Source of the DNA: Candidatus Omnitrophota bacterium
GTDB taxonomy: Bacteria; Omnitrophota; Gorgyraeia; Gorgyraeales; Gorgyraeaceae
Direction of reading: 5' to 3'
Length of the DNA stretch: 61,706 nucleotides
Assembly: GCA_042571405.1 (NCBI GenBank)
Contig: JBHPHU010000005.1
Span: 1-61,706, forward strand
Positions 12,295 through 60,450 of the stretch are shown here, in pieces. A program made the position numbers and the translations under genes. Numbering within the stretch: the stretch's first letter is position 1; every line of letters starts with the position of its first letter. Under the pieces are notes generated by a model that was not told the DNA's origin, did no database searches, and saw only the letters and a list, made by a program, of their open reading frames with translations.

Positions 12295-14528
12295 AAAAAA
12301 TAACTTTTCTTAATTCAACTTTGAATATTGGCGGGGCTGAAAAGCTAGGCTATGAGATAGCGCAAGGTCTTGATAAGACCAGATTTAGCGTTAAATCAAT
12401 TTGTCTTTATGGGCCGGGTGTTATTGGAGAAAGGCTTGTCTCAGAAGGCATGGTTCTTACACATAGCCTCATGCGCAACAAATACGATTTTTTAGCTATT
12501 TTTAGATTAATAAAGATACTGAGGAAAGAAAAGATAGACGTGCTGCATCTTGAGAGTTCGCCATTGGTTTTATTTTTGGGATTCATATGCGGCAGGATAG
12601 CCAGGATTCCGCGTATTTCTACAACGATCCATACCATGAGAAAACCAGAAGCGTGGAAGAGATATAAATCAGGCATTATAAATAAATTGATATTGCGCAG
12701 GTTAGACAGAATAAGCGTGCCTTCAAAGATTAAATACGATTCCCTTATAAAAGAGTATGGACTTGACCAGAAAAAGCTCGAGCTGATCCAAAACGGCATA
12801 GATATAAAGAAGTTTGACAGGCTGAAAAAGGCCAATGGGTTAAAAAAGGAATTAGGCATCTCGCGCGATAAGAAGATCATAGGTATGGTAGGAAGATTAG
12901 TGAATGAAAAGGCGCATGATGTTTTTCTAAAAGCAGCGGGGTATATTATCGAATCCGAGCCGGATGTAAAATTTTTGATCATAGGAGACGGCAAAGAAAA
13001 GAAGGAACTGAAGGCGTTAGCGGATAACCTGGGCATTTCAAAAGACGTGATATTTTTTGGCAAAGGTACGCAGGATATCCCGGGACTTATTTCTATATTT
13101 GACGTAGCAGTGCTTTCCTCAAGAATGGAATTGTTTCCCCTGGTGTTATTGGAATACATGGCGGCATCCAAACCTATAGTAGCGACAAGGGTAGGCGGAA
13201 ATCCTGAGATCATCACGCATGGCGAGTCAGGGATCATTGTGCCGCCTGAGGATCCAAAGGCCCTTGCGGAGAATGTCATCGCGCTATTAAAGGACAAGGA
13301 CAGGGGCCGCAATATGGCAGCTCTCGCGAGAAAGAGGGTTAAGCAGGAATTTTCTCTGGAGAAGATGATAGAGAGAATGGAGAGATTTTTCCTGAATCCT
13401 TTGCCGGGACCTTTTAAAACTCACATAATCATGGCAGGCCCAGGCCTTTCAGTGAAAGGCGGGATATCATCTTTTGCGAAAAATTATCTGAGCTCACAAT
13501 CGCCGGAAGGCTTGAGAATAACATATCACGCGACAACAATAGACGGCAGTAAAGCGCTCAAGATCTTTTTCTTTGTAAAAAGCCTTTTGACGTTTGTCGC
13601 TAAATTAGTTTTTGACAGGACCATAAAGATAATCCATATCTGCAGCGCCTCAAGAGGCAGTTTTTACAGAAAAGCTATCATATTGATCTTATCCAAGCTT
13701 TTTAAGAAGGCTACTGTATTTCATATACATGGCGGAGGTTTTCATTTGTTCCACAACAGGGGGACTGCCCTAAGAAGATTTTTCGTAAGAAAGATATTGG
13801 CTGTAACTGATTCCATAATAGTCTTGTCAGAGTCATGTCGTTTAGATATTGAAGGGATCACAGAGAATAGAAATATAAAGGTGATACCTAATCCCATAGA
13901 CACATCTGATTTTGTGTCGATCAGAGGCAGTAGAGATCATTCCAATCTGAATGTTTTTACCGCAGGCAGGCTTTACTGGCTCAAAGGCACATATGACATA
14001 TTGGACATAATTCCGCGCGTCTTAAAAGAGGTGCCTGGCGTGAAGTTTTGCTTTGCGGGAGATGGGGACGTGGAAAAGGTCAGGCAGATCGTCAGGGATA
14101 AGGGAATAGAAAAGAACGTATTTTTGCCAGGCTGGCTTGATAAGGATGGATTAGTAAAGAGGCTTCAAGACTCCAGTATATTTTTACTGCCTTCATATAC
14201 CGAAGGGCTTCCCGTGGCTATGCTTGAGGCAATGGCCTCAGGGTTGCCTGTAGTTTCTACAAGAGTAGGCGGTATACCTGAGCTGGTAGAGGATGGCGTG
14301 AATGGATTTTTAGTAGAACCCGGGGAAAAGCAAAAACTGGGGGATAAGATCATAGAGTTACTAAAGGACGCGGATCTAAGGGATAAGATGAGTAAGAATA
14401 ATACGGATAAGATAGATTCACTGTTCAGATTGGACCGTATAGTAGGTAAATTCTACGAAGAATACGACCGCTTGATCAAGCACTTGGTGGGGGGGGGGCC
14501 CCCCGCCACCAAGTGCTTCACCAGGTAA
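12291..14528 (+). CDS. Tandem double GT4 glycosyltransferase
   Basis: Two complete GT-B units: GGAEK...ELFPLVLLEYMA and GGISS...EGLPVAMLEAMASG. Confidence 0.85.
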   Translation: MKKITFLNSTLNIGGAEKLGYEIAQGLDKTRFSVKSICLYGPGVIGERLVSEGMVLTHSLMRNKYDFLAIFRLIKILRKEKIDVLHLESSPLVLFLGFICGRIARIPRISTTIHTMRKPEAWKRYKSGIINKLILRRLDRISVPSKIKYDSLIKEYGLDQKKLELIQNGIDIKKFDRLKKANGLKKELGISRDKKIIGMVGRLVNEKAHDVFLKAAGYIIESEPDVKFLIIGDGKEKKELKALADNLGISKDVIFFGKGTQDIPGLISIFDVAVLSSRMELFPLVLLEYMAASKPIVATRVGGNPEIITHGESGIIVPPEDPKALAENVIALLKDKDRGRNMAALARKRVKQEFSLEKMIERMERFFLNPLPGPFKTHIIMAGPGLSVKGGISSFAKNYLSSQSPEGLRITYHATTIDGSKALKIFFFVKSLLTFVAKLVFDRTIKIIHICSASRGSFYRKAIILILSKLFKKATVFHIHGGGFHLFHNRGTALRRFFVRKILAVTDSIIVLSESCRLDIEGITENRNIKVIPNPIDTSDFVSIRGSRDHSNLNVFTAGRLYWLKGTYDILDIIPRVLKEVPGVKFCFAGDGDVEKVRQIVRDKGIEKNVFLPGWLDKDGLVKRLQDSSIFLLPSYTEGLPVAMLEAMASGLPVVSTRVGGIPELVEDGVNGFLVEPGEKQKLGDKIIELLKDADLRDKMSKNNTDKIDSLFRLDRIVGKFYEEYDRLIKHLVGGGPPATKCFTR
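14478..14518. repeat. 41-bp near-perfect palindrome with a G10/C6 centre
   Basis: AAGCACTTGGTGG ... CCACCAAGTGCTT arms; encodes KHLVGGGPPATKC at the GT C-terminus. Confidence 0.85.
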
Positions 14529-17762: not shown

Positions 17763-17764
17763 TT

Positions 17765-17819
17765 ACCTCTCCGACCTCGTAGGTCGACCTACGAGGTCGA
17801 CCTACGAGGTCGGAGAGGT
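17765..17819. repeat. Palindrome family A, three 13-bp units (55 bp, 26-bp stem)
   Basis: ACCTCTCC-GACCTCGTAGGTC-GACCTACGAGGTC-GACCTACGAGGTC-GGAGAGGT. Confidence 0.9.
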
Positions 17820-17830
17820 GAAAGAGGGAT

Positions 17831-19255
17831 ATGAAGACAAAGGTCGCGATTTATAAACAGCATAGTTTGCGTTATTCAAACAGGCCGCCGTATTCTCCGC
17901 CGGCAATATTTCCGGAATACCCTTTTGAAGATAAGAGGGTTGACGCAGAGAATGAGGCATATTTTTCGTTAAGGGAGTTATTTAAGATGTTAGATCTTGA
18001 TTCTGAGAATTTTGGAAAAAAGCACTGGAATCCTCTTTCTTTTCTCGTGTCGCCGGGTCAAACAGTGCTTTTGAAGCCAAACCTCATGAGACACTTTGCT
18101 GACAAGGGAGCTACGAATAAGTTGATCACGCATGGCTCTATAATCAGGGCAATCGCGGATTATGTATATATTGCCTTAAAGGGCAAAGGAAGGATTATTA
18201 TTGCTGATGGCCCTATGGACGAGGGAGATTTCGGAAAGATTCGCAGGATCGCGGGCCTGGATAAGATAGAAAGATTCTATAGTGAAAGCGCTGATTTTGA
18301 TATCGAGGTATATGACTTGAGACAGGAACAGGTATTCAAGAAAGGCAATGAGATTATCCGCAGGATAAAACTACCCGGTGATCCTGCAGGCTATACGGCT
18401 GTTGACTTGTCCAAAGAGAGCAAGTTTAAAAACGATTCGCTGGACTATACGACGTTCAAGGGAAGCGAATGCATAAGTTCTATTATGAATGCCCACCACA
18501 ATGATAAGAAGAACGAATATCTTATATCCAATACATTGCTCAATGCAGATGTGGTAATCAACATTCCCAAGCTCAAGACACATAACAAGGCCGGAGTTAC
18601 ACTGGCTCTTAAAAATATGGTAGGCATTACAGGAGATAGAAATTGGCTACCGCATTTTAAATACGTTTCATCAAAATCTCCCTGTACGGACGCGTTGTCC
18701 GGACACCGCGTCCGTACAGGTTATGGACAGCTTACGAAGTTGACCAATAAAGGGGTTATGAAATATCTCAAGGATAAGATAAAAGAAGTGAGAGGCCTAA
18801 GGGATTCTGATATAAAAAAGGGCAACTGGTATGGAAATGATATTATCTGGAGGACGATCTTAGATCTATTACAAATAGTTATGTATGCGGATAAAAAAGG
18901 CAAGGTCCGTGAAAAAGCACAGCGCAAGAGTTTTTTTATTGTGGACGGCATAGTCGGAGGAGAAGGAGATGGCCCTATGAATCCTGATCCAAAGCCGTGC
19001 GGTGTTTTAATCGCTGGTTTTGACGGTCCATGCGTAGATATGGCAGCAGCCAGGCTTATGGGATTCGATCCTATGCGCATCCCGCAATTAAAAAACTCTT
19101 CAAGCAATGATAGCAATAACGTGTACAAGGACATAAAGGCTGTATCTAATTTACGCGATTGGAATGGATTTTTATCTCAGTTTAAAGGCAGGTGCCTGGG
19201 TTTTAAGCCATTTTATGGATGGAGGCATCATATAGAGGTAAGAGATGGCGAGTAA
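17831..19255 (+). CDS. DUF362 domain protein
   Basis: VLLKPN, INIPKLKTH..AGVTLALKNMVG and DGIVGGEGDGP motifs. Confidence 0.85.
   Translation: MKTKVAIYKQHSLRYSNRPPYSPPAIFPEYPFEDKRVDAENEAYFSLRELFKMLDLDSENFGKKHWNPLSFLVSPGQTVLLKPNLMRHFADKGATNKLITHGSIIRAIADYVYIALKGKGRIIIADGPMDEGDFGKIRRIAGLDKIERFYSESADFDIEVYDLRQEQVFKKGNEIIRRIKLPGDPAGYTAVDLSKESKFKNDSLDYTTFKGSECISSIMNAHHNDKKNEYLISNTLLNADVVINIPKLKTHNKAGVTLALKNMVGITGDRNWLPHFKYVSSKSPCTDALSGHRVRTGYGQLTKLTNKGVMKYLKDKIKEVRGLRDSDIKKGNWYGNDIIWRTILDLLQIVMYADKKGKVREKAQRKSFFIVDGIVGGEGDGPMNPDPKPCGVLIAGFDGPCVDMAAARLMGFDPMRIPQLKNSSSNDSNNVYKDIKAVSNLRDWNGFLSQFKGRCLGFKPFYGWRHHIEVRDGE
18681..18720. repeat. Palindrome family B, variant copy, in frame in the DUF362 gene
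   Basis: CCTGTACGGACGCGTTGTCCGGACACCGCGTCCGTACAGG with one mismatched pair. Confidence 0.9.
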
Positions 19256-30292: not shown

Positions 30293-32938
30293 ATGCGGAT
30301 AAGCAGAAAGATTGGGTTGAGTTTTTTTATAACATTTCTTCTTGTCATAGTTCTCGGTGTACTTTCTATATATAGTTTAAAGCATACATATAGAGGCTTG
30401 AGTCAGGTCTTTGCAAGGGATCTGCCTGCGTCCAGGACTACTTACCAGATAGCCATTTCAATGGAGAGACTCTTCTCCGAACTCAATAATTTTCTCATAA
30501 CAGGTAACGAGAACTTCAAGATAAGTTATGAAAAGGCTCATGAAGAAATAGCCCGGGATATATCAGCTCTTGCAAGATTTATATCTGAAGAGGAAGAGAC
30601 AGGGCTTTTTGAGGAGACAGAGAGTTTAATAGCTGAGATAGACGGAACTGCGCGGGATATATTTAAAAACAGAAAAGATATGGAGGCTTTATACAAGGAC
30701 CTCAGGGCAATAGAGACGGAATTTACAAAGAAACTGGACAGCCTTTTTGATTTTGAAGAAAATAAGATGCGGGATGAGAAGGATTTTTTATTGGTCCGGA
30801 CGCAGTATCTACCTGCCTCAGATCTTATAGCGGAAGCTCGCTTGAGGTTTTCAAAAGCATTCTCAGATCTTAATGAAGTAGATTTTTTAATCCTGGAAAA
30901 ATCTTTAAGGGATTACAAAAATTATTACGGGTATTCTCTTTCCGATAAAGAACGCAGCCTTGCAACTGAACTTATAGAGTTCTCCGGCAAAATAAAATTG
31001 ATTGGCGGCTCAATAGTTGATCTTAAGGCCAAAACAGGGAGTTATGTAGATTTATTTCTGGCTAAAGGCAAGGATTTTACAGAGACGCTGGATAAAATAA
31101 TATCGCTTAAGAAAAGCGGAATTTCTTCAAAACTGGGAGCAGGCGCCGCGCTTACAGAGGATATACCAGCCATACATAATATCTCCAAGATTGAAAAGGA
31201 CATGGCAGAGTCATGGAGGACAAGCAGCAGATATATATTGACTGGCGATGAGACATATATGGCCCGCTATCGTCAGTTAAGACTGAATATAGAGAAAGCC
31301 CTTAAGGATTATGGCCGTCATGCGCGGCTTAGGGGTACGGAAAAATTTTTCGATGATATCCTGGAATCAGACAGCGCTATTTTAAAGCGCATAGATTCTG
31401 GCGTGACATTGTTTAACAAGAAACAGAGCAGCCTTTCAGAGCTTTTGTCTATAGGTTCAGAGATCGAAAACAAGATCAATGGGCTCCTGGCGCAAAAGGA
31501 TTCTTTGATAAAAGAGGCAAAGGATCCGCAGGATATCCTGGAGGAACTTATGCCCGCGAGGTGGATGTTAATGCGTCTCAAGGATGAGTTTGCGAGCGCG
31601 TCCAGGCTCATTATGGATTACTTGAGTGAACAGGAGCTAAAGTACAAGGATCAGTATTCAGAATCGTATTTTGATATGAAAAAATACATGAATAGATACA
31701 GGAACCTTGCCGGGGGGCTTGTTGATTCTGTGTTCGTAAAAGAGATAGGACTCCAGCTGGATAGTTTTAATAGCGCTGTCTTAGGTGTTATTGATAGTCA
31801 CGACAGCCTTATGAAGGAACGCGGATGGACCCTCATAGAATTACAAAGTGATTTAAAGAGTCGCTTAGGCAAGGCAGTGGAGGCGGAGATCAGTCAGATC
31901 GAAAAGAATAAAAAAGACCTTGCGAATAGAATGAGGACTATCAATATCGTGATTTTTATCATAATAGGCGTGGTAGCTTTTATAGCAGTATTCGTTATTT
32001 TTTATACCATGAGTTCCATAACAAATCCTATTCAGGCGCTTTACAACGGCGCCGGCATAATAGGTAAGGGCAATCTGGATCACAGATTGGACATAAAAAC
32101 AGGGGATGAGATACAGGATCTTGCGGAAGGGTTTAATAATATGGCAGGGGAGTTAAAAGAGCTTTACACAAATCTCGAGAACAAGGTAAAGGAAAGGACT
32201 GCGCAGCTGGCAGAGGCAAATGACGCATTGGCATTAAAAAATAAAGAGCTGGATGATTTTACATATATTGTCTCGCATGATCTAAAGGAGCCATTGCGCG
32301 GGGTAAAGGCATTCACGAAACTATTAAAGGAAGAATACTCAGAGAAAATCAATAAAGAAGGAAAAGAATATTTAGAGACTATATCTGAATCCAGCAGCAG
32401 GATGACAGGGCTCATAGAGGATCTTTTGAATCTTTCGCGCATAGGGAGGATTAAGAACATAGAACCTGATATTGATTTCAATGAGCTGCTTTCGGATGTA
32501 AAAAAGAATCTGCAGTATTCCCTTGAGGAGAAAAAAGTGGAGCTGAAGATTCCGGAGAATTTGCCAAAGGTCGCATGCGATAAGATAAGGATCTCAGAGG
32601 TATTTTCAAATCTTATCTCAAACGCGGTTAAGTATTGTAAAAAGGGCGTTAAGCCTGTTGTTGAGGTTGGATTTTCAAGCAAAGTCGGTCATTACGAATT
32701 TTATGTAAAGGATAATGGTATTGGCATAGACAAGGCGTATCATGATAGGGTATTTCAGATATTCCAGCGGCTTCACGCAAAAGGCGAATACGAAGGAACA
32801 GGCGCAGGCCTTACTATCGTTAAAAAGATAGTAGAGAATCACGGCGGCAAGATCTGGGTCGAGTCAGAGTCAGGTAAAGGAAGTACATTTTATTTTACAA
32901 TAGCCAAGAAAACAAAAAAACAATCTTTGATCTTGTAA
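30293..32938 (+). CDS. Sensor histidine kinase with a long helical periplasmic region, HAMP, HisKA and HATPase
   Basis: Two TMs, HAMP (DEIQDLAEGFN), SHDLKEPLR, NLISNAVKY, DNGIG and GTGAGL. Confidence 0.92.
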   Translation: MRISRKIGLSFFITFLLVIVLGVLSIYSLKHTYRGLSQVFARDLPASRTTYQIAISMERLFSELNNFLITGNENFKISYEKAHEEIARDISALARFISEEEETGLFEETESLIAEIDGTARDIFKNRKDMEALYKDLRAIETEFTKKLDSLFDFEENKMRDEKDFLLVRTQYLPASDLIAEARLRFSKAFSDLNEVDFLILEKSLRDYKNYYGYSLSDKERSLATELIEFSGKIKLIGGSIVDLKAKTGSYVDLFLAKGKDFTETLDKIISLKKSGISSKLGAGAALTEDIPAIHNISKIEKDMAESWRTSSRYILTGDETYMARYRQLRLNIEKALKDYGRHARLRGTEKFFDDILESDSAILKRIDSGVTLFNKKQSSLSELLSIGSEIENKINGLLAQKDSLIKEAKDPQDILEELMPARWMLMRLKDEFASASRLIMDYLSEQELKYKDQYSESYFDMKKYMNRYRNLAGGLVDSVFVKEIGLQLDSFNSAVLGVIDSHDSLMKERGWTLIELQSDLKSRLGKAVEAEISQIEKNKKDLANRMRTINIVIFIIIGVVAFIAVFVIFYTMSSITNPIQALYNGAGIIGKGNLDHRLDIKTGDEIQDLAEGFNNMAGELKELYTNLENKVKERTAQLAEANDALALKNKELDDFTYIVSHDLKEPLRGVKAFTKLLKEEYSEKINKEGKEYLETISESSSRMTGLIEDLLNLSRIGRIKNIEPDIDFNELLSDVKKNLQYSLEEKKVELKIPENLPKVACDKIRISEVFSNLISNAVKYCKKGVKPVVEVGFSSKVGHYEFYVKDNGIGIDKAYHDRVFQIFQRLHAKGEYEGTGAGLTIVKKIVENHGGKIWVESESGKGSTFYFTIAKKTKKQSLIL

Positions 32939-35229: not shown

Positions 35230-35386
35230 CACGACCAAGATCGAACTGAAATTCCGCAAACTTCCCAATGACCCAAATATGTTCGAGTTCACAGTAAGCT
35301 CGCCATTATTGCGTTCGCAATTCTGCGTACCCAGAGCCATAATCAACCAGCTCCGCGTAGACCTGGAAAAGGCCCTTACGCATTAG
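35222..35386 (+). CDS. Small hypothetical protein (54 aa, not in the ORF track)
   Basis: GGAGG RBS at 35211; MSNTTKIELKFRKLPNDPNMFEFTVSSPLLRSQFCVPRAIINQLRVDLEKALTH*; overlaps the upstream stop. Confidence 0.55.
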   Translation: MSNTTKIELKFRKLPNDPNMFEFTVSSPLLRSQFCVPRAIINQLRVDLEKALTH

Positions 35387-35421
35387 TAGGGGACCCTTAA
35401 GGGTCCCCTACATTGTGGATA
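35384..35421 (+). repeat. 38-bp direct repeat copy 1, containing a perfect 26-bp GTAG-ended palindrome
   Basis: TAGTAGGGGACCCTTAAGGGTCCCCTACATTGTGGATA, identical to 43541-43578. Confidence 0.92.
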
Positions 35422-35473: not shown

Positions 35474-37039
35474 TTATAACCCGTATTTTAGTCTTGGCAT
35501 TAATTTTAGGGCTGCGTCTTTTACTAATTTTATATCTAATAGTTGTATCCAATGCCTATTGTCAGGAGGGAGGGAGGCTATATAGTTATTAATGTCTCCG
35601 GAGGCCAGCCTAAAAAGTATGTCTTTTTCAGAATCATATACATTAATGTAATCACCTATCGCTATTTTTAGATCGTATTTTGTATCTATCAAAAACCCGT
35701 TCATATATCTGTGTCTTTTGTTTAAAGTCCCCGCGAAAATATCTTTATTCAGAGCCAGCTTAAATACAGGGTCTACTACCCAGTCTTCAGAAAAAAATTC
35801 TATATGCCCGATCGGGCCGTATTTACTGTATTGATTGCCGGACACATAAATAACCTTGTTGTCTTGGTATTCATTGAGATCCTGGTTGTTTTTTATGTTT
35901 GTTATAATTCTCTGCTGATGCGCGTTCCAGGTTTTCCAGTGGCCTGAAATGCCCAGGATCGTAAAGATTATCAGCGCGAAGACCAGGGTCTTTATTTTTT
36001 TTGACGCAGGCATTAACACAATAAGGTACGTAAATAGTAATGACCCATAGATAGTAGTTCTATTGCCAAGATTAAAGGCCAACTGTGGATAACGGCCGGT
36101 AACAGCAAACATCAAGAAAGAAGAAAATACCAGGACCATAAGACTTATAATGAGTTTTTTACCCATTCGACCTCGTAGGTCGACCTCGTAGGTCGACCTA
36201 CGAGGTCGAATGGGGTCTAATTTATAAAAAATTACTACAAGGGTAAGGCCTATTGTTAATGATATCAATGATATCTGAGAGAAAGAATAATATATTTTTA
36301 GCCACATCGAAGGTCCGCACATGGAGTCTATAAAGGTTAGGACTTGTAATATAAATTGCTTGATCACGATAGAGACGCTTATTTCTTCGATTATTCTGGG
36401 ACTGCCCATGCGAAACAGTATATTTATAGGGATGAAATACAGCGCATAAATAATGTTAGGAATAATTATAACAGCGCCTTTTTTAAATTCCTTATTTAAC
36501 GCGAATAAAACGAATAGCCCTAGTGCGATCGGGGGAGTGCCGTAAGATAGAAACGAGGCGATCAAGGCTGATAAAAAGGCCGGGATCAGTTTATTGCGAT
36601 GCGCCAAATAAAAAGCGAATAGATACAGGCAAAATGATATGCTGATGTATTGTATCATGAATGAATATACCGTAGAGTCATGTGAAGGAAAGAAGATAAA
36701 CAAAAAAGATGCCCAGAGGGCAGTGTATCTATTTAGAAAGATGTTAAAAAATCCGATCACTAAACAAAAAGATAAAATAGTGTAAAAGATTTTCAGGATA
36801 TTAACAAGGAGTGGATTGTCTATTCGAAACCAATAATACCATATGTAATGGCTAAAATGTTCTATTGGCGTCTCAATAAAATAGCCGTCGGGAATAAGCA
36901 CATCCTTGATATCTTTATTCTCGAGTTTAACCATTACGGCAAAATCATCCGCGCTAAGCCCCGTATTTATCAAAAGATAAGCTATCAGAATAAGACATGA
37001 AAGAAGCAGTAGATTTTCGACCTTAAAGACTTTTTTCAT
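35474..37039 (-). CDS. Polytopic membrane protein, GT-C-like sugar transferase
   Basis: ADD after TM1, about 11 TMs and a soluble C-terminal domain; last gene of an amino-sugar cassette. Confidence 0.55.
   Translation of the reverse strand: MKKVFKVENLLLLSCLILIAYLLINTGLSADDFAVMVKLENKDIKDVLIPDGYFIETPIEHFSHYIWYYWFRIDNPLLVNILKIFYTILSFCLVIGFFNIFLNRYTALWASFLFIFFPSHDSTVYSFMIQYISISFCLYLFAFYLAHRNKLIPAFLSALIASFLSYGTPPIALGLFVLFALNKEFKKGAVIIIPNIIYALYFIPINILFRMGSPRIIEEISVSIVIKQFILQVLTFIDSMCGPSMWLKIYYSFSQISLISLTIGLTLVVIFYKLDPIRPRRSTYEVDLRGRMGKKLIISLMVLVFSSFLMFAVTGRYPQLAFNLGNRTTIYGSLLFTYLIVLMPASKKIKTLVFALIIFTILGISGHWKTWNAHQQRIITNIKNNQDLNEYQDNKVIYVSGNQYSKYGPIGHIEFFSEDWVVDPVFKLALNKDIFAGTLNKRHRYMNGFLIDTKYDLKIAIGDYINVYDSEKDILFRLASGDINNYIASLPPDNRHWIQLLDIKLVKDAALKLMPRLKYGL
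36162..36214. repeat. Palindrome family A, three units, in frame in the membrane-protein gene
   Basis: The 39-bp core is the exact reverse complement of 17773-17811; encodes RPRRSTYEVDLRGR. Confidence 0.9.
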
Positions 37040-38566: not shown

Positions 38567-39514
38567 TTACGATCTTTTTTCTATATAAAATAACGGGCGT
38601 TTGCGTGATTCGTCTAAATTACGCCAGAGATATTCCCCTATTATGCCAAGCATTATCATTTGGATGCCCCCTAGAACTAATACCACCAGCATTACGAGCG
38701 ACCAGCTTTCTATAGGACTATTTGTAATTACTTTCAGCGCTATATATAAAATACCTGAAGCCAAGATAAATAATCCTGTGATACACATTAAGATCAATGG
38801 TGATCCTGAAAAACCTATTAACCAGTCTTTTGCAAGGCCTATGTGAGTTTTGAAACTCCATTTTGATTTGCCGGACATTCGAGTACGGCGTTCATATTCT
38901 ACAGAGTCCTGGCTGAAACCAAGCCATGTTATAAGACCTAACAGTGAAGTGTTGCGCTCCGTACACTCATTGAGCGCGTTTACAGCAGTTTTATCCAATA
39001 AACAGAAATCAGCTTTGGATATATCGATATTGGTTTTACCCGTACCTCCTAACCATGCCAGGATTTTATAGAAGAGTTCAGCTTTTTTTCTGGTATTGAA
39101 TGGTTCGTTATGCCTGTCTTTTCGAACCGCCCAGACTACTTTAGCGCCATTGCGCCATTTTTTTAACATATCCTCGAGGCAGGCTGGGTTATCCTGGCCA
39201 TCAGCAGAGATATATAGCACTATGTTGCCGGCAGCTTCTTTTATACCGGCGCGTAATGCAATATGACTGCCGGATCGCTTGCTTAATCTCAGACATTTTA
39301 CCCTCGAGTCGTGCATTCCTTGAACAACGTCAAATAAATCGTCAGAGGAGTGGTCATCCACCACAATGATTTCAAAGCTGTCCTGTACAGATGCGGTGTC
39401 TAGACACCGCATCTGTACAGGGTCCAAGTTTTCTAATGTTGTAAAGAGTTCATTGATAGTAGTTTTGATATTTTTGGCTTCATTGTAAGCGGGGATTACT
39501 ATAGATATATTCAT
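38567..39514 (-). CDS. GT2 polyprenyl-phosphate glycosyltransferase (GtrB/ArnC-like)
   Basis: IVIPAYNE, VDDHSSD, ADGQD, two C-terminal TMs and GIIGEY...RPLF. Confidence 0.88.
   Translation of the reverse strand: MNISIVIPAYNEAKNIKTTINELFTTLENLDPVQMRCLDTASVQDSFEIIVVDDHSSDDLFDVVQGMHDSRVKCLRLSKRSGSHIALRAGIKEAAGNIVLYISADGQDNPACLEDMLKKWRNGAKVVWAVRKDRHNEPFNTRKKAELFYKILAWLGGTGKTNIDISKADFCLLDKTAVNALNECTERNTSLLGLITWLGFSQDSVEYERRTRMSGKSKWSFKTHIGLAKDWLIGFSGSPLILMCITGLFILASGILYIALKVITNSPIESWSLVMLVVLVLGGIQMIMLGIIGEYLWRNLDESRKRPLFYIEKRS
39382..39421. repeat. Palindrome family B, perfect 40 bp, in frame in the GT2 gene
   Basis: CCTGTACAGATGCGGTGTCTAGACACCGCATCTGTACAGG; encodes DPVQMRCLDTASVQ. Confidence 0.95.
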
Positions 39515-41407: not shown

Positions 41408-42448
41408 TTATTCCCAATTAATGCCTTTTTCTTGCCCGAGTAATACTAGAGGTGGCTCCGGCCTTGATTTAAACCACTCGATTGTTTTAATAAGCCCTTG
41501 TTCAAATGAAACCTCAGGCTGCCACTCTGTTATCTTTCTGAACGCGCTTGTATCCGCAAATAAACGCAGCACATCCCCGGGTCTATTTTTAACATGGTTT
41601 ATGCCCTGTACAGATGCGGTGTCTAGACACCGCATCTGTACAGGGTCTTGGGCATTGATTATATTTAAAATCATTTCTGCTACTTGTTTGATCGAGATTT
41701 CAAAGTCGCTTCCCATATTAAGCGTAAGTCCGATCGCTTCATCGTGTTTTGCCGCTTTGATAAAGCCATTTGCAGTATCTTCTACGAAAGTATAGTCACG
41801 CGTTTGAGAGCCATCTCCAAAAATAATAATAGGTTCTTTGTTGAGGGACCTGACAATAGACTTAGGTATTATTTCTCCCGCATCTCCTTCATGATGCGAT
41901 CGCGGCCCATAAACGTTAAAAGGCCGCATAACTACGGTTTTCAGTCCATAGGTTTTGTGATATGCGCGCGTGTATGCTTCACCTGCCAGTTTGCTTGCCC
42001 CGTATACAGTAGAGGGGTGGGTCGGGTGTGATTCTGACATGGGGACATAATGCGCAGTTCCGTAGACCTCAGAAGAAGAGGAGTGGATGAATTTTTTAAC
42101 TCCAGCCTTGAGAGCCTCTTGTAAGACCATAAGGGTTCCTTCGGCATTAACGCAATGGCTCTCAAAGGGATGTTTGATCGAATGGCGGACCCCCAGGCAC
42201 GCAAGGTGAAAAACAATATCTATATCTTTCATGGCCTTGATTATCTCAGGCGACTCAGTAATACTCCCTAAAATAAATTCAAAGCAGTTGTTGTTTCTAT
42301 GATGGTCTAAATTTCCAAGTTTACCATTACGCAGGTTGTCAATAACACGGACATAACAACCTTCTTTGACCAGAGTGTCTACTAAATGTGAACCAATAAA
42401 GCCAGCGCCGCCAGTAACTAAAACTTTTTTACCTGATAGCTCCATCAT
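41408..42448 (-). CDS. NAD-dependent sugar epimerase/dehydratase (extended SDR)
   Basis: TGGAGFIG, SSSEVYG, YGASK, RPFNVYGP and GDGSQTRD motifs. Confidence 0.92.
   Translation of the reverse strand: MMELSGKKVLVTGGAGFIGSHLVDTLVKEGCYVRVIDNLRNGKLGNLDHHRNNNCFEFILGSITESPEIIKAMKDIDIVFHLACLGVRHSIKHPFESHCVNAEGTLMVLQEALKAGVKKFIHSSSSEVYGTAHYVPMSESHPTHPSTVYGASKLAGEAYTRAYHKTYGLKTVVMRPFNVYGPRSHHEGDAGEIIPKSIVRSLNKEPIIIFGDGSQTRDYTFVEDTANGFIKAAKHDEAIGLTLNMGSDFEISIKQVAEMILNIINAQDPVQMRCLDTASVQGINHVKNRPGDVLRLFADTSAFRKITEWQPEVSFEQGLIKTIEWFKSRPEPPLVLLGQEKGINWE
41604..41645. repeat. Palindrome family B, perfect 42 bp, in frame in the epimerase gene
   Basis: 41605-41647 is identical to 39382-39424; encodes DPVQMRCLDTASVQ. 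Confidence 0.95.
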
Positions 42449-43540: not shown

Positions 43541-43578
43541 TAGTAGGGGACCCTTAAGGGTCCCCTACATTGTGGATA
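43541..43578 (+). repeat. 38-bp direct repeat copy 2
   Basis: Identical to 35384-35421; 12 bp from the comM stop; runs into TGTGGATAA (43571-43579). Confidence 0.92.
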
Positions 43579-49567: not shown

Positions 49568-49618
49568 GCCCCGTTCCAAATTGCCCGATTTTAAGAATGG
49601 GGCAATTTGGAATGGGGC
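49568..49618. repeat. 19-bp inverted repeat overlapping the tRNA-Ala 5' end
   Basis: GCCCCGTTCCAAATTGCCC / GGGCAATTTGGAATGGGGC with one G-U pair. Confidence 0.8.
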
Positions 49619-49778: not shown

Positions 49779-52274
49779 ATGAGCGAATTTTATCCTTTTA
49801 AGAAAATCGAGAAGAAGTGGCAGAAGGCATGGGAGAGGCAGGGGCTTTTTAAGATGGACCCCGAGTCTTCCAAGGATAAGTATTATTGCCTGATGATGTT
49901 TCCGTATCCGTCTGCCTCATTGCATGTAGGACATGGCAGGAACTATATTATAGGAGATGTTGTAGCGCGTTACAAGATCATGCATAAGCTTAATGTCCTG
50001 GCGCCAATGGGCTGGGACGCGTTTGGTCTTCCCGCAGAAAATGCTGCTATAAAAAGCGGCATCCACCCCAAGATTTCTACATTAAATAATATAAAGACAA
50101 TGAAGAAACAGCTCAATGCCTGGGGCGTGGGGTATGACTGGGATAGAGAGATCGCTTCATGTATGCCTGATTATTACAAATGGACACAGTGGATATTTTT
50201 AGAGCTCTATAAAAAGGGCCTTGCCTATAAGAAAAAAGCTCAGGTCAATTGGTGCCCCTCTTGTCAGACAGTGCTTGCAAATGAGCAGGTAGTGGATGGC
50301 GCGTGCGAAAGGTGTTCCGCTGAAGTTGAGCTGCGTAGTCTCGAACAATGGTTTTTCAAGATAACTGATTACGCGCAGAGGCTTCTGGATGATTTGAGTC
50401 TGTTAAAGGATTGGCCGGAGCGGGTAAGGATCATGCAGAAGAACTGGATCGGCAGGAGCGAGGGCGTTGAGATAGATTTTAAGCTCGCAGATGATGGTCA
50501 AGGCGAAACCTCCGCCAGCTTAGCTGGCGGAGGTTTCGCCTTGACGTGTTTTACCACCAGGGTGGATACAATCTATGGCGCTACATATATGGTGCTTGCC
50601 GCGGAACATCCAATGGTTGAGGAGCTTATAAAAGGTTCTGATAAAGAAAATGATATAAAAAAATTCATCGCAGACGTTAAAAAGGAAAGTTTTACGGACA
50701 GGGTTTCAGCTACTGCTGAGAAAAAAGGCGTATTTACAGGCAGATTTGTCATAAACCCCGTGAATGGTAAAAAGATCCCGCTGTGGATTTCGAATTATGT
50801 GCTGATGGAATATGGTACAGGCGCGGTAATGGCAGTGCCTGCGCATGATGAGAGAGACTTTGAGTTTGCGAAAAAGTATGACTTAGAGATAGTGGTTGTG
50901 ATCGATAATCCAAAAGAGCGCCTTGATGCAAAGAGCATGAAACAGGCTTTTGTAGAAGAAGGGGTTATGGTGAATTCCAGCCAATTCAATGGCCTGCCAA
51001 GTCTTGAGGCAATTGAAAAAATCTCAGATTATATGGAAAAAGAAAAGATAGGAAGAAGAAAGATCCATTATAAACTGCGAGACTGGCTTATCTCCAGGCA
51101 AAGGTATTGGGGCGCGCCCATACCTATGGTGTATTGTGAAAAATGCGGCATACAGCCGGTAGATGAAAAAGATCTTCCGGTTCTTTTGCCTGAAAAGGTT
51201 AAGTTTAAACCTCGTGGTGAATCGCCATTAAAAGATGCGGAGAGTTTTGTCAATACAAAATGCCCTAAATGTAAATCCAAAGCTCGACGAGAAATCGACA
51301 CAATGGATACATTCGTGGATTCTAGCTGGTATTTTCTGAGATTCTTATCTCCAAAAAACAACAAAAATCCTTTTGATAAAGAATTAGTCAATAAGTGGCT
51401 TCCTGTAGATCAATATATCGGAGGCGTGGAACATGCGATTCTGCATTTAATGTATTCAAGATTTATCGTAAAGGTGCTTCATGACTTGGGTCACGTGGGT
51501 TTTAAAGAACCATTCGCCAAACTCTTTACACAGGGGATGATCGTAAAAGACGGCGCAAAGATGTCCAAGTCAAAAGGCAATGTCGTGAGTCCTGACGCGC
51601 TTATAGAGAAATACGGCGCGGACACAGTGAGGTTTTACACATTGTTTATCGGCCCGCCTGAAAAAGACGCGGAGTGGAATGATCGCGGCGTCGAAGGCGC
51701 GTGGAGGTTTCTTAACCGAGTGTGGCGACTTGTGGAACGGGATACGGGGAACGGGATACGGGGAACGGGGGATGGAAATAAAATTTCATCTCTTAAGCGA
51801 AAGACACATTTTACTATTAAAAAAGTTACAGAAGATATAGAAGGCGCTTTTCATTTCAATACAGCATTAAGCGCGATAATGGAATTAGTAAATGAGATTT
51901 ATTCTATCCCGAATCCCGAATCCCGAATCCCGAATCCCGAATTAAAAAAAGCCATAGAAACAGTCGTGATCCTCCTTGCGCCTTTTGTGCCGCATATTGC
52001 TGAGGAGATGTGGGAGATATTAGGGAATAAAAAGAGCGTATTTGAAGCAGACTGGCCGGGATATGACGAGGCTGCGCTTGTTCAGGATAGGATCACCATG
52101 CCGGTTCAGGTAAATGGCAGGGTGCGCTCAAGGATAGAAGTTGGATCAAGCGCGGATGAAGAAGAGATAAAAAAGATTGTCATGGAAGATCCCCTGGTTA
52201 GTAAATGGACCCAAGGCAAACCACCCAAGAAAATTATTGTTGTAAAAGGAAGATTAGTAAATCTCGTGGTATAA
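49779..52274 (+). CDS. leuS: Leucine-tRNA ligase
   Basis: MFPYPS..LHVGH, GTGAVMAVPAHDERD, DWLISRQRYWG and KMSKSKGN motifs. Confidence 0.98.
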   Translation: MSEFYPFKKIEKKWQKAWERQGLFKMDPESSKDKYYCLMMFPYPSASLHVGHGRNYIIGDVVARYKIMHKLNVLAPMGWDAFGLPAENAAIKSGIHPKISTLNNIKTMKKQLNAWGVGYDWDREIASCMPDYYKWTQWIFLELYKKGLAYKKKAQVNWCPSCQTVLANEQVVDGACERCSAEVELRSLEQWFFKITDYAQRLLDDLSLLKDWPERVRIMQKNWIGRSEGVEIDFKLADDGQGETSASLAGGGFALTCFTTRVDTIYGATYMVLAAEHPMVEELIKGSDKENDIKKFIADVKKESFTDRVSATAEKKGVFTGRFVINPVNGKKIPLWISNYVLMEYGTGAVMAVPAHDERDFEFAKKYDLEIVVVIDNPKERLDAKSMKQAFVEEGVMVNSSQFNGLPSLEAIEKISDYMEKEKIGRRKIHYKLRDWLISRQRYWGAPIPMVYCEKCGIQPVDEKDLPVLLPEKVKFKPRGESPLKDAESFVNTKCPKCKSKARREIDTMDTFVDSSWYFLRFLSPKNNKNPFDKELVNKWLPVDQYIGGVEHAILHLMYSRFIVKVLHDLGHVGFKEPFAKLFTQGMIVKDGAKMSKSKGNVVSPDALIEKYGADTVRFYTLFIGPPEKDAEWNDRGVEGAWRFLNRVWRLVERDTGNGIRGTGDGNKISSLKRKTHFTIKKVTEDIEGAFHFNTALSAIMELVNEIYSIPNPESRIPNPELKKAIETVVILLAPFVPHIAEEMWEILGNKKSVFEADWPGYDEAALVQDRITMPVQVNGRVRSRIEVGSSADEEEIKKIVMEDPLVSKWTQGKPPKKIIVVKGRLVNLVV
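50497..50545. repeat. Perfect 24-bp-arm palindrome in frame in leuS
   Basis: GTCAAGGCGAAACCTCCGCCAGCT-T-AGCTGGCGGAGGTTTCGCCTTGAC. Confidence 0.95.
51734..51942. repeat. Pair of mutually complementary 7-bp tandem arrays in leuS
   Basis: (GGAACGG/GATACGG)x5 at 51734-51768 and (ATCCCGA)x5 at 51906-51940. Confidence 0.88.
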
Positions 52275-57288: not shown

Positions 57289-58797
57289 ATGCATAAAAGA
57301 CCCCTTGCAGTCATTTGTATTTTCTTCATAATAGGGATTGTTTTAGCGAAGTTCCTGCCCGATTTTGTTAAATTTTCTCATATATTTGCAATAACTTTAA
57401 TCTTCATTTCATCGTCTTTACTTCTCAATCTGCCCTACAGTGGGTTGGAGGCAGGAAGAGAGAAAGCAGCGAATGCTCTTTTACTCTTATCAGTTATTTC
57501 CTTTGCCACACTTCTGTATGTAAATTCCAATATTTTTCCGACTAATCATATTAGCCATTTTTTGGGAGAAGAAAAACTCAAAGCCAACATCGCCGGTATC
57601 ATAAAAAGCCCGGCACTGACGCGGAAGCCGTATTATGGCAAGATTAATTCTACGTATATGTTTGAAGTAGAGGCGATAAAGGCTGAAGGCTCTAGGCTCA
57701 AGGCTGGAGGGGAGTGGTTGGGCGTAACTGGTTTATCGCAGATCAGAATACAAACTGAAAAAGATTATCAATATGGCGATAGACTGTTAGTAAGAGGTAC
57801 GATAAGGAGGCCTGCCAGTGATGCTTCTCGACTTCGCTCGAAGAATATTGAAGGGAATAATGTTCGAGCGAAGTCGAGAACATTTAATTATAGGGAATTT
57901 TTAGAAAGACAAAATATATTCGCCCTTATAAATACGAAAGAAAATAATATTACTGTCCTATCTCATGATTACAAATCAAATCCTATCCTGAAATACACAT
58001 ATCTTCTCCGCGAAAAACTTAAAAATCAGATCCTCGAAAAGATGCCTCTTGAAAGCGGCGCATTCCTGAGGGCGATTCTCCTCGGCGATCGCTCTGAACT
58101 CCCAAAACATATTCAAACCTCCTTTAAAAACTCCGGCACAGTACATGTTTTGGCAATAAGTGGACTGCATATTGGGATCATTGCGCTTGTGTTCCTTTAT
58201 CTCTTCAGGCTCTTGAGGTTCAGAAGAGAATTCTCTTATATATTGACTATAATATTTTTGATATTTTTTGCTATACTTACGCTCTCAAGGCCGTCGGTTG
58301 TAAGGGCAGTAGCGATGGCTGCTATTTTTCTTACAGGTATGCTCTTAGGGAAGAAGGTGGATGTGTATAATTCTTTAGGAGCAGCAGCGCTTTTTATATT
58401 GATCAGGAATCCCAAGGATATTTCTAATATCGGATTCCAGCTATCTTTTGCGGCAGTACTTTTTATATTATTCTTTACGCCCAAATTCATGAGGTTTGTG
58501 AAAGAGGGGACTAATTTCTATATAAAAAGATATTTGTATACGCCTTTGGCAGTCTCAATGTCAGCATGGCTAGGCACATTTAGTTTGGTATGGTATTACT
58601 TTAAGATCGTGACGCCTATTGCTATTATTGCCAATCTTTTTATAATCCCTGCCATTTTTGCATTATTGATAGGCGGCTTGGGGTTTCTCTTGTTGGGCTG
58701 GGCGCCATTTATAGGAGATTTTCTGGCAGGCCTTAATGATTTTCTATGCCAGGCGATCTTTTTCCTCGCAAGTTTCTTTGCTAAGCTTGCATTTTAG
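57289..58797 (+). CDS. comEC: ComEC/Rec2 competence channel without a C-terminal metallo-beta-lactamase domain
   Basis: FNYREFL, AILLGDR, HVLAISGLH, PSVVRA and GFQLSF motifs. Confidence 0.9.
   Translation: MHKRPLAVICIFFIIGIVLAKFLPDFVKFSHIFAITLIFISSSLLLNLPYSGLEAGREKAANALLLLSVISFATLLYVNSNIFPTNHISHFLGEEKLKANIAGIIKSPALTRKPYYGKINSTYMFEVEAIKAEGSRLKAGGEWLGVTGLSQIRIQTEKDYQYGDRLLVRGTIRRPASDASRLRSKNIEGNNVRAKSRTFNYREFLERQNIFALINTKENNITVLSHDYKSNPILKYTYLLREKLKNQILEKMPLESGAFLRAILLGDRSELPKHIQTSFKNSGTVHVLAISGLHIGIIALVFLYLFRLLRFRREFSYILTIIFLIFFAILTLSRPSVVRAVAMAAIFLTGMLLGKKVDVYNSLGAAALFILIRNPKDISNIGFQLSFAAVLFILFFTPKFMRFVKEGTNFYIKRYLYTPLAVSMSAWLGTFSLVWYYFKIVTPIAIIANLFIIPAIFALLIGGLGFLLLGWAPFIGDFLAGLNDFLCQAIFFLASFFAKLAF
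57680..57710 (+). repeat. 7-bp tandem array (AGGCTNN)x4 in frame in comEC
   Basis: AGGCTGA AGGCTCT AGGCTCA AGGCTGG AGG; encodes KAEGSRLKAGG. Confidence 0.75.
57825..57880. repeat. Perfect 18-bp inverted repeat with a 20-nt spacer, in frame in comEC
   Basis: TTCTCGACTTCGCTCGAA / TTCGAGCGAAGTCGAGAA. Confidence 0.92.
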
Positions 58798-60331: not shown

Positions 60332-60342
60332 TAACAATATAA

Positions 60343-60450
60343 TTCCAAATGTCAAATGACAAAATCCAAATGAATAATTTAAATCCAAATAATTAAATTA
60401 TTTGTCATTGGGTGATTCATTTGTCATTTGGGATTTGTCATTTGGGATTT
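60343..60450. repeat. Inverted pair of 7-bp arrays (NNCAAAT / ATTTGNN) between lptE and holA
   Basis: TCCAAAT GTCAAAT GACAAAA TCCAAAT ... ATTTGTC ATTTGGG ATTTGTC ATTTGGG. Confidence 0.85.

Follow-up and report, generated by a model that had tools for sequence, protein, structure and literature searches.

A probable REP/REPIN-type hairpin repeat in the DUF362 gene of a Candidatus Omnitrophota bacterium

The palindrome at 18681-18720 and its host gene

The window analysed here, that is the whole 61,706-nt stretch of contig JBHPHU010000005.1, is contig C5 of a genome (G000) whose assembly of 1.156 Mb in 60 contigs is 60% complete and has 40.8% G+C. The palindromic repeat under study, here called family B, and the genes that carry it lie in the window as follows.

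17831..19255, plus strand: DUF362 host gene, intact, 474 aa; Pfam PF04015, 102.5 bits
18681..18720: family B hairpin repeat of the CCGG-centre/G8 subtype with a T15.C26 mismatch; covariance model R1, 64.1 bits
38567..39514, minus strand: family-2 glycosyltransferase gene (Pfam Glycos_transf_2), carrying the 39382 copy read as PVQMRCLDTASVQ
39382..39421: family B copy of the TCTAGA-centre/A8 subtype, perfect palindrome, inside the glycosyltransferase gene
41408..42448, minus strand: NAD-dependent epimerase/dehydratase gene (Pfam), carrying the 41605 copy read as PVQMRCLDTASVQ
41605..41644: family B copy identical to the 39382 copy and likewise a perfect palindrome, inside the epimerase/dehydratase gene

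The 40 nt at 18681-18720 read CCTGTACGGACGCGTTGTCC and then GGACACCGCGTCCGTACAGG and form a near-perfect palindrome with a single mismatch. This palindrome is far beyond chance: folded as single-stranded DNA it reached -19.8 kcal/mol on the plus strand (z -7.0) and -22.2 kcal/mol on the minus strand (z -8.0), whereas shuffled versions had a mean folding energy near -7 and none of 200 attained the real value. Aligned with the 39382 and 41605 copies, it differed at seven positions. Pair 8/33 was A-T in those copies and G-C at 18681, pair 11/30 went from T-A to C-G, and so did the centre pair 20/21. At position 15 G was replaced by T with the partner at 26 still C, which left the one T.C mismatch. 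An earlier, sequence-only reading of the window had described three symmetric pair changes, one uncompensated change and a different reading frame. The alignment bore this out in all three respects, the frame giving PCTDALSGHRVRTG in 17831..19255(+) against PVQMRCLDTASVQ on the minus strand.

In the DUF362 protein PCTDALSGHRVRTG corresponds to residues 284-297. The repeat falls there into the length-variable linker that joins two conserved blocks, WLPH and GNW(Y/H)GND. A structure model built from a ten-sequence alignment had a mean pLDDT of 65.3, with residues 264-334 below 50, in coil and with no secondary structure at the insert. The model gives weak support for a flexible loop, and the variable linker that holds the insert is probably disordered.

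The sequence-only reading had further proposed an alignment of DUF362 orthologues to delimit the insert. The palindrome was missing from the WLPH-GNW linker of all nine other orthologues in the ten-sequence alignment, that of the congener G001 included, but the insert had no clean boundaries: the sequence flanking the repeat on the right could not be aligned with G001, and neither a clean empty site nor a target duplication was definable. The linker of G001 is 8 residues shorter, so that the net difference in G000 is +24 nt and not 40 or 42. The 18681 copy has no stop codon in any frame.

Copies of family B and covariation of their stem

A fuzzy search with the arms found 13 two-armed copies of family B on 8 contigs of G000, seven of them 40 nt and six 49 nt long. 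The longer form is the shorter one with GCC-NNN-GGC at its centre, a 3-bp stem with a 3-nt loop, and leaves the arms unaltered. The congener G001 (97% complete) had three two-armed copies and was the sole one among 40 relatives to have any. A covariance model built from the copies (R1), with the central pairs of its structure opened, recovered the same 13 places in G000 and three in G001, and no match in 24 other relatives. When the variable positions were left free, the two-arm pattern was present in two of 401 sampled genomes of the phylum, and family B was not found in the other 399. The same pattern had no match in viral contigs and matched four metagenome loci. Two of these, L089 and L090, were not counted as extra copies because their transposase is 100% identical to that of the G001 locus. 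L088 was left out of the alignment of 17 rows used below; its positions 219-284 hold a compound 66-nt relative of family B in which the inner arms are repeated. Family B is thus, among what was searched, confined to one genus, and its 13 copies in G000 are a modest number beside classic REPs.

Single arms were scanned for as well. In species-representative genomes this gave 74 loci, all single-arm and none two-armed, which is chance level given about 140 estimated chance matches. Four one-arm fuzzy matches in G000 (C2:1538, C5:60691, C8:11045 and C16:22757) had 4 mismatches each, were not recovered by the covariance model and were dropped as chance.

Eleven of the 13 copies in G000 lie inside open frames at least 294 codons long; the other two are outside long ORFs. 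Pfam families could be given to 8 of the 11 host frames: DUF362, GT2, epimerase, GH94, radical SAM with DUF6873, PMT_2, RACo and polysaccharide deacetylase. The frame read as P/L/F-V-Q/R is used by 9 of the 11 intragenic copies, by the metagenome copy L087 and by the copy on contig C25 of G001, whose host we take to be folylpolyglutamate-synthase-like from its GSKGKGST motif. The two remaining intragenic copies, the one in the DUF362 gene and C15:11585, use the PC(T/I)DAL frame. A third frame is used by the compound L088 copy, inside an aminoacyl-tRNA synthetase gene with a KMSKS motif. Two G001 copies beside a transposase gene are non-coding, and four copies in all are outside genes. Even in one same frame the two subtypes encode peptides four residues apart (PVQMRCLDTASVQ and PVRTRCPDNASVQ). 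Copies in all three frames and outside genes indicate that the peptide is a passenger.

Empty-site evidence covers four of the 11 intragenic copies, with a comparison to PDB structures for one more. Besides the DUF362 site, family B was missing at the sites orthologous to C1:3982, C1:17537 and C22:15789 in the congeners G001 and G002. In the epimerase, the two PDB homologues shown as alignments had a gap of 11-12 residues at the encoded peptide. Elsewhere, DNA searches against G001 and G002 matched positions 38.4-42.7 kb of the window only at the palindromes themselves and found no synteny for orthologous sites at C1:38500-45500; the matches to C26 and C15 did not cover the insertion sites, and C14 had no match.

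Covariation was assessed on 17 copies (15 distinct), namely the 13 from G000, three from G001 and one from the metagenome contig L087. Standard pairs filled 98.1% of 318 pair cells; four cells at 15/26 were unpaired and two were T.G wobbles. Seven of the 23 stem pairs changed on both sides (columns 2, 6, 7, 8, 11, 15 and 20). The covariation score was 0.180 against 0.089 in shuffles, none of 500 shuffles reaching the real score, although the rows are related, and kinship alone can lift sequences above shuffles even where no constraint acts. The number of both-side pairs was reached by one shuffle in 500, and structures slid by 1-3 columns had 0-1 such pairs, whereas the measure 'further pair types' was not above shuffles (287 of 500). 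Pairs 8/33 and 20/21 were completely linked and defined just two subtypes; since the copies fall into a few subtypes, independent double changes are few.

These results support the view that the stem is preserved as nucleic acid. This was also the proposal of the sequence-only reading, which held the symmetry to be independent of the peptide and looked to a covariance model for confirmation. The degree of pairing, the both-side changes, the use of several frames and a covariation beyond both shuffled and slid controls all speak for it. The symmetric changes separate two subtypes of the repeat. The variant at 18681 is no locally evolved oddity. It represents the other of the two standard subtypes of a REP-like repeat, the subtype that in G001 lies 3' of the transposase gene; the G001 copy there differs from it by one base. 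C1:17537 is its exact reverse complement.

A RAYT-like transposase and the upkeep of the symmetry

In G001, two family B copies 660 nt apart bracket an ORF of 211 aa (L097, 1696..2331). The copy upstream, L097:1636-1675, has the TCTAGA centre and A8, and the copy downstream, L097:2335-2374, the CCGG centre and G8. The ORF matched Pfam Y1_Tnp with 29.6 bits, above the cut-off of 23. It also matched the NCBIfam model 'REP-associated tyrosine transposase' (NF047646) with an E value of 6e-14 and 52.1 bits, below the curated cut-off of 80, and aligned to E. coli TnpA-REP (4er8) with an E value of 0.004 over the H-x-H and YI-x-x-NPV motifs. Because one copy of each subtype brackets this HUH/tyrosine (Y1, RAYT-like) transposase gene, family B can be taken for a hairpin repeat of the REP/REPIN type, and a transposase like that of G001 would be the enzyme that moves it. 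Two short ORFs that overlap each other, 99 and 90 aa long, follow directly after the transposase gene and its 3' hairpin (L097:2392-2956) and by eye resemble an antitoxin-toxin pair.

The assembled 60% of G000 contained no orthologue of this transposase; the best match there was 59% identical and bracketed by a second, GTAG-bearing palindrome family (family A). Six Y1_Tnp matches were detected in G000, on contigs C13, C9, C38, C27, C6 and C8 (loci L091-L096). At least two of these genes are bracketed by palindrome families other than B, the one on C27 and the one at C8:30758-31405, which sits between family A palindromes at 30698-30739 and 31409-31458. A census of the genome counted 92 hairpins whose stems were at least 15 bp long. 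Six Y1_Tnp matches together with several palindrome families are a high load for a 1.16-Mb, 60%-complete genome.

We think it quite probable that 18681-18720 is a copy of a genus-restricted hairpin repeat of the REP/REPIN type, partnered with a RAYT-like HUH/Y1 transposase and carried as a passenger in the DUF362 linker. The substrates of HUH/Y1 transposases of this kind are hairpins folded from single-stranded DNA, and by analogy the transposase of family B would recognise such a hairpin. Only source copies that keep the stem would then be recognised and copied, so that differences between subtypes would appear on both arms, whatever the peptide encoded. One family B copy would have landed in the variable DUF362 linker in a codon phase unlike that of most other copies. 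With no stop in any frame and a net length change that is a multiple of three, the insert would have been carried along and translated as a passenger, presumably without harm.

The symmetry may instead have been restored mechanically, by template switching within a quasi-palindrome or by conversion from another copy, with no selection for recognition by a transposase. We regard this as possible but rather unlikely. Most copies are indeed perfect palindromes, and the copies of G000 and L087 at the same site of a GH94 gene differ at positions 11, 15 and 30, with 11/30 compensated; three random substitutions yielded a compensated pair in 2.6% of 200000 simulations. The family A palindromes of G000 and G002 at one orthologous site (C1:13653) differ in the same manner, by 7 bases: three pairs are compensated, and the direct-repeat unit next to them carries the same change. 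Fast symmetrisation, however, should erase the T.C/G.A mismatch at 15/26, which persists in four of the 17 copies; as T15.C26 it recurs at three unrelated loci, C1:3982 included. An asymmetry common to copies at unrelated loci argues that both arms were copied together from a source and disfavours a very fast correction from arm to arm. T.G wobbles, too, persist in C1:3982 and C15:11585; these are G.T-type intermediates, and each of the three transitions (8/33, 11/30, 20/21) may have gone by way of one. If a new copy from a source of one subtype overwrote the old one, the resulting pattern would look like that of conversion, and mechanical restoration may act alongside the copying of stem-keeping sources. 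Both-arm symmetry as such fits selection or intrastrand conversion, which the data do not fully separate.

An RNA element, acting as an mRNA hairpin that slows down translation, makes the transcript more stable or terminates transcription, seems improbable to us. The same stem would form in RNA, and the two G000 copies outside long ORFs lie where, according to Di Nocera 2013 (PMC3733652), REPs elsewhere among bacteria may influence transcripts. Nevertheless, 11 of the 13 copies lie in the middle of genes for unrelated enzymes, on either strand of the gene, the two subtypes bracket a transposase gene, and the family is restricted to one genus. Nor did any Rfam family reach its threshold: the sole match, a plant microRNA model, scored 17.1 bits where its gathering score is 200.

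Half-sites that change alike would also be expected of a palindromic double-stranded DNA site bound by a dimeric protein. We hold this to be very improbable: seven positions of the stem, that at the centre among them, vary without loss of pairing, and the 49-nt form adds a central stem and loop with the arms unaltered, both of which fit a hairpin better, and no candidate binder was found. That selection acts on the peptide as a protein module, with the palindrome only incidental, can be practically dismissed, as the frame common to most intragenic copies is left by the window copy, by C15:11585 and, for a third frame, by L088, four copies are non-coding, the subtypes change four residues in one frame with the stem kept, and orthologues do without the peptide.

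Known repeats, site reuse and further palindromes

REP/REPIN-RAYT systems (see also Nunvar 2010, PMC2817692) share several traits with family B. Like the repeats of E. coli TnpA-REP (PDB 4ER8) and the Pseudomonas REPINs (PMC3116915), family B is a short, dispersed palindromic repeat. In G001 its Y1/HUH transposase gene is bracketed by the repeat (a 'REPtron'), and in G000 several repeat families, each with its own transposase, share one genome, as they do in those systems. Compensatory changes across the hairpin are described as common in REPINs by Bertels & Rainey 2011 (PMC3116915). There are also differences. A REPIN consists of two imperfect REPs and a spacer, whereas family B has one continuous, mostly perfect stem of 20-23 bp with a loop of 0-3 nt. 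Its 40-nt form has no loop and can be read as two 20-nt half-sites, the halves not being hairpins themselves. Unlike the GTAG/CGTC superfamilies of REPs, family B bears no terminal GTAG or CGTC tag: its arms start with CCTGTAC, GACG/CGTC occurs only inside the stem and GATG/CATC in some copies, while family A of G000 does carry GTAG. The low copy number (13), the mostly intragenic location and a transposase below the NCBIfam RAYT cut-off set family B further apart.

'Codogenic' REPs of the GTAG/CGTC type, in frame inside genes of known proteins, where they add short peptide stretches, were described for several species by Di Nocera, De Gregorio & Rocco 2013 (PMC3733652), who argue against functional constraint on the REP-encoded peptides. 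Family B belongs to another repeat family and another phylum, and is intragenic in 11 of 13 copies whereas most REPs in that account are intergenic. The same article summarises the Rickettsia palindromic elements (RPE), which like family B are palindromic repeats sitting in frame in ORFs whose protein products probably still work; its RPE summary names no partner transposase, whereas the partner gene of family B was identified in the congener. The likeness to RPE is one of behaviour only. Elements of the RPE-1 type are longer.

The partner of family B is of the same transposase superfamily (Pfam Y1_Tnp) as the enzymes of IS200/IS605 elements, for instance IS608, a group mentioned in PMC3116915. 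Unlike these, family B has no transposase gene inside the mobile unit, and its ends and target site are undefinable here. The subterminal hairpins of IS200/IS605 are recognised by TnpA as single-stranded DNA, and an irregularity of the stem tells the two strands apart. By analogy, the T.C/G.A mismatch of family B could play such a strand-distinguishing role.

A literature search for palindromic repeats and transposases in Omnitrophota returned no paper naming the phylum among the 10 best matches listed, which is thin evidence that such repeats have yet to be described there. Intragenic REPs and compensatory changes in REPINs have both been published, and the element is of a known kind. It offers a small, clean example of a selfish DNA hairpin that keeps its fold while the encoded protein text drifts, with the partner transposase and both hairpin subtypes identified together. 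The copies suggest that ordinary enzymes of these uncultured bacteria with small genomes can accommodate 8-17 additional linker residues, and in annotation such inserts should not be taken for domains, frameshifts or RNA genes.

Another observation concerned the choice of sites. Over a 20-kb stretch that is syntenic in G000, G001 and G002 there are three palindrome sites in total, all occupied in G000. They compare as follows with the orthologous loci in G001 and G002 (L121-L124) and in L087.

C1:3982-4021: family B in G000; none in G001; family A in G002, with the same right-hand boundary
C1:17537-17576: family B in G000; an 18-nt family-A-like unit in G001 and G002; family B in L087
C1:13653-13711: family A in G000; none in G001, which is 39 nt shorter; family A in G002

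No site in this stretch was occupied in G001 or G002 yet empty in G000. The flanks of C1:17537 are 84-89% identical among all four sequences. The pattern fits overwriting by newer copies, or conversion. We tentatively raise the possibility, itself doubtful, that the repeats land non-randomly: a few linker sites would be reused, families would replace each other at the same boundary, and copies at the same site would differ by both-arm changes only. In that case the transposases would seek out hairpins already in place and write over them, or copies would often convert one another, and coding linkers would be long-lived docking sites for competing repeat lineages. Site reuse, if general, would be relevant to the way in which REP-type repeats select their sites.

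The window contains further palindromes. Those at 17763-17821 and 36162-36214 are family A palindromes of 53-59 nt with CGACCTCGTAGGTCG-type units carrying GTAG. The first of them fills the gap between the stop of a UDP-glucose-dehydrogenase-like ORF (17762) and the start of the DUF362 gene (17831), a classic extragenic REP position. Two identical perfect palindromes of 26 nt starting with GTAGGGGACCC, at 35386-35411 and 43543-43568, belong to a further repeat family. At 50497-50545 lies a 49-nt palindrome of the GGCGAAACCTCC family, which has at least seven more copies in the genome, one of them adjoining the Y1 transposase match at G000:C6:22770-23003. Four further hairpins were seen at 14473-14523, 49568-49618, 57825-57880 and 60341-60449. 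Among these four, one has a G/C run at its centre, one is of the GCCCCGT type and one of the TTCTCGACTTCGCTCGAA type, with more copies on C2, C3 and C25; the fourth is an A+T-rich imperfect inverted repeat with arms of 54 nt.
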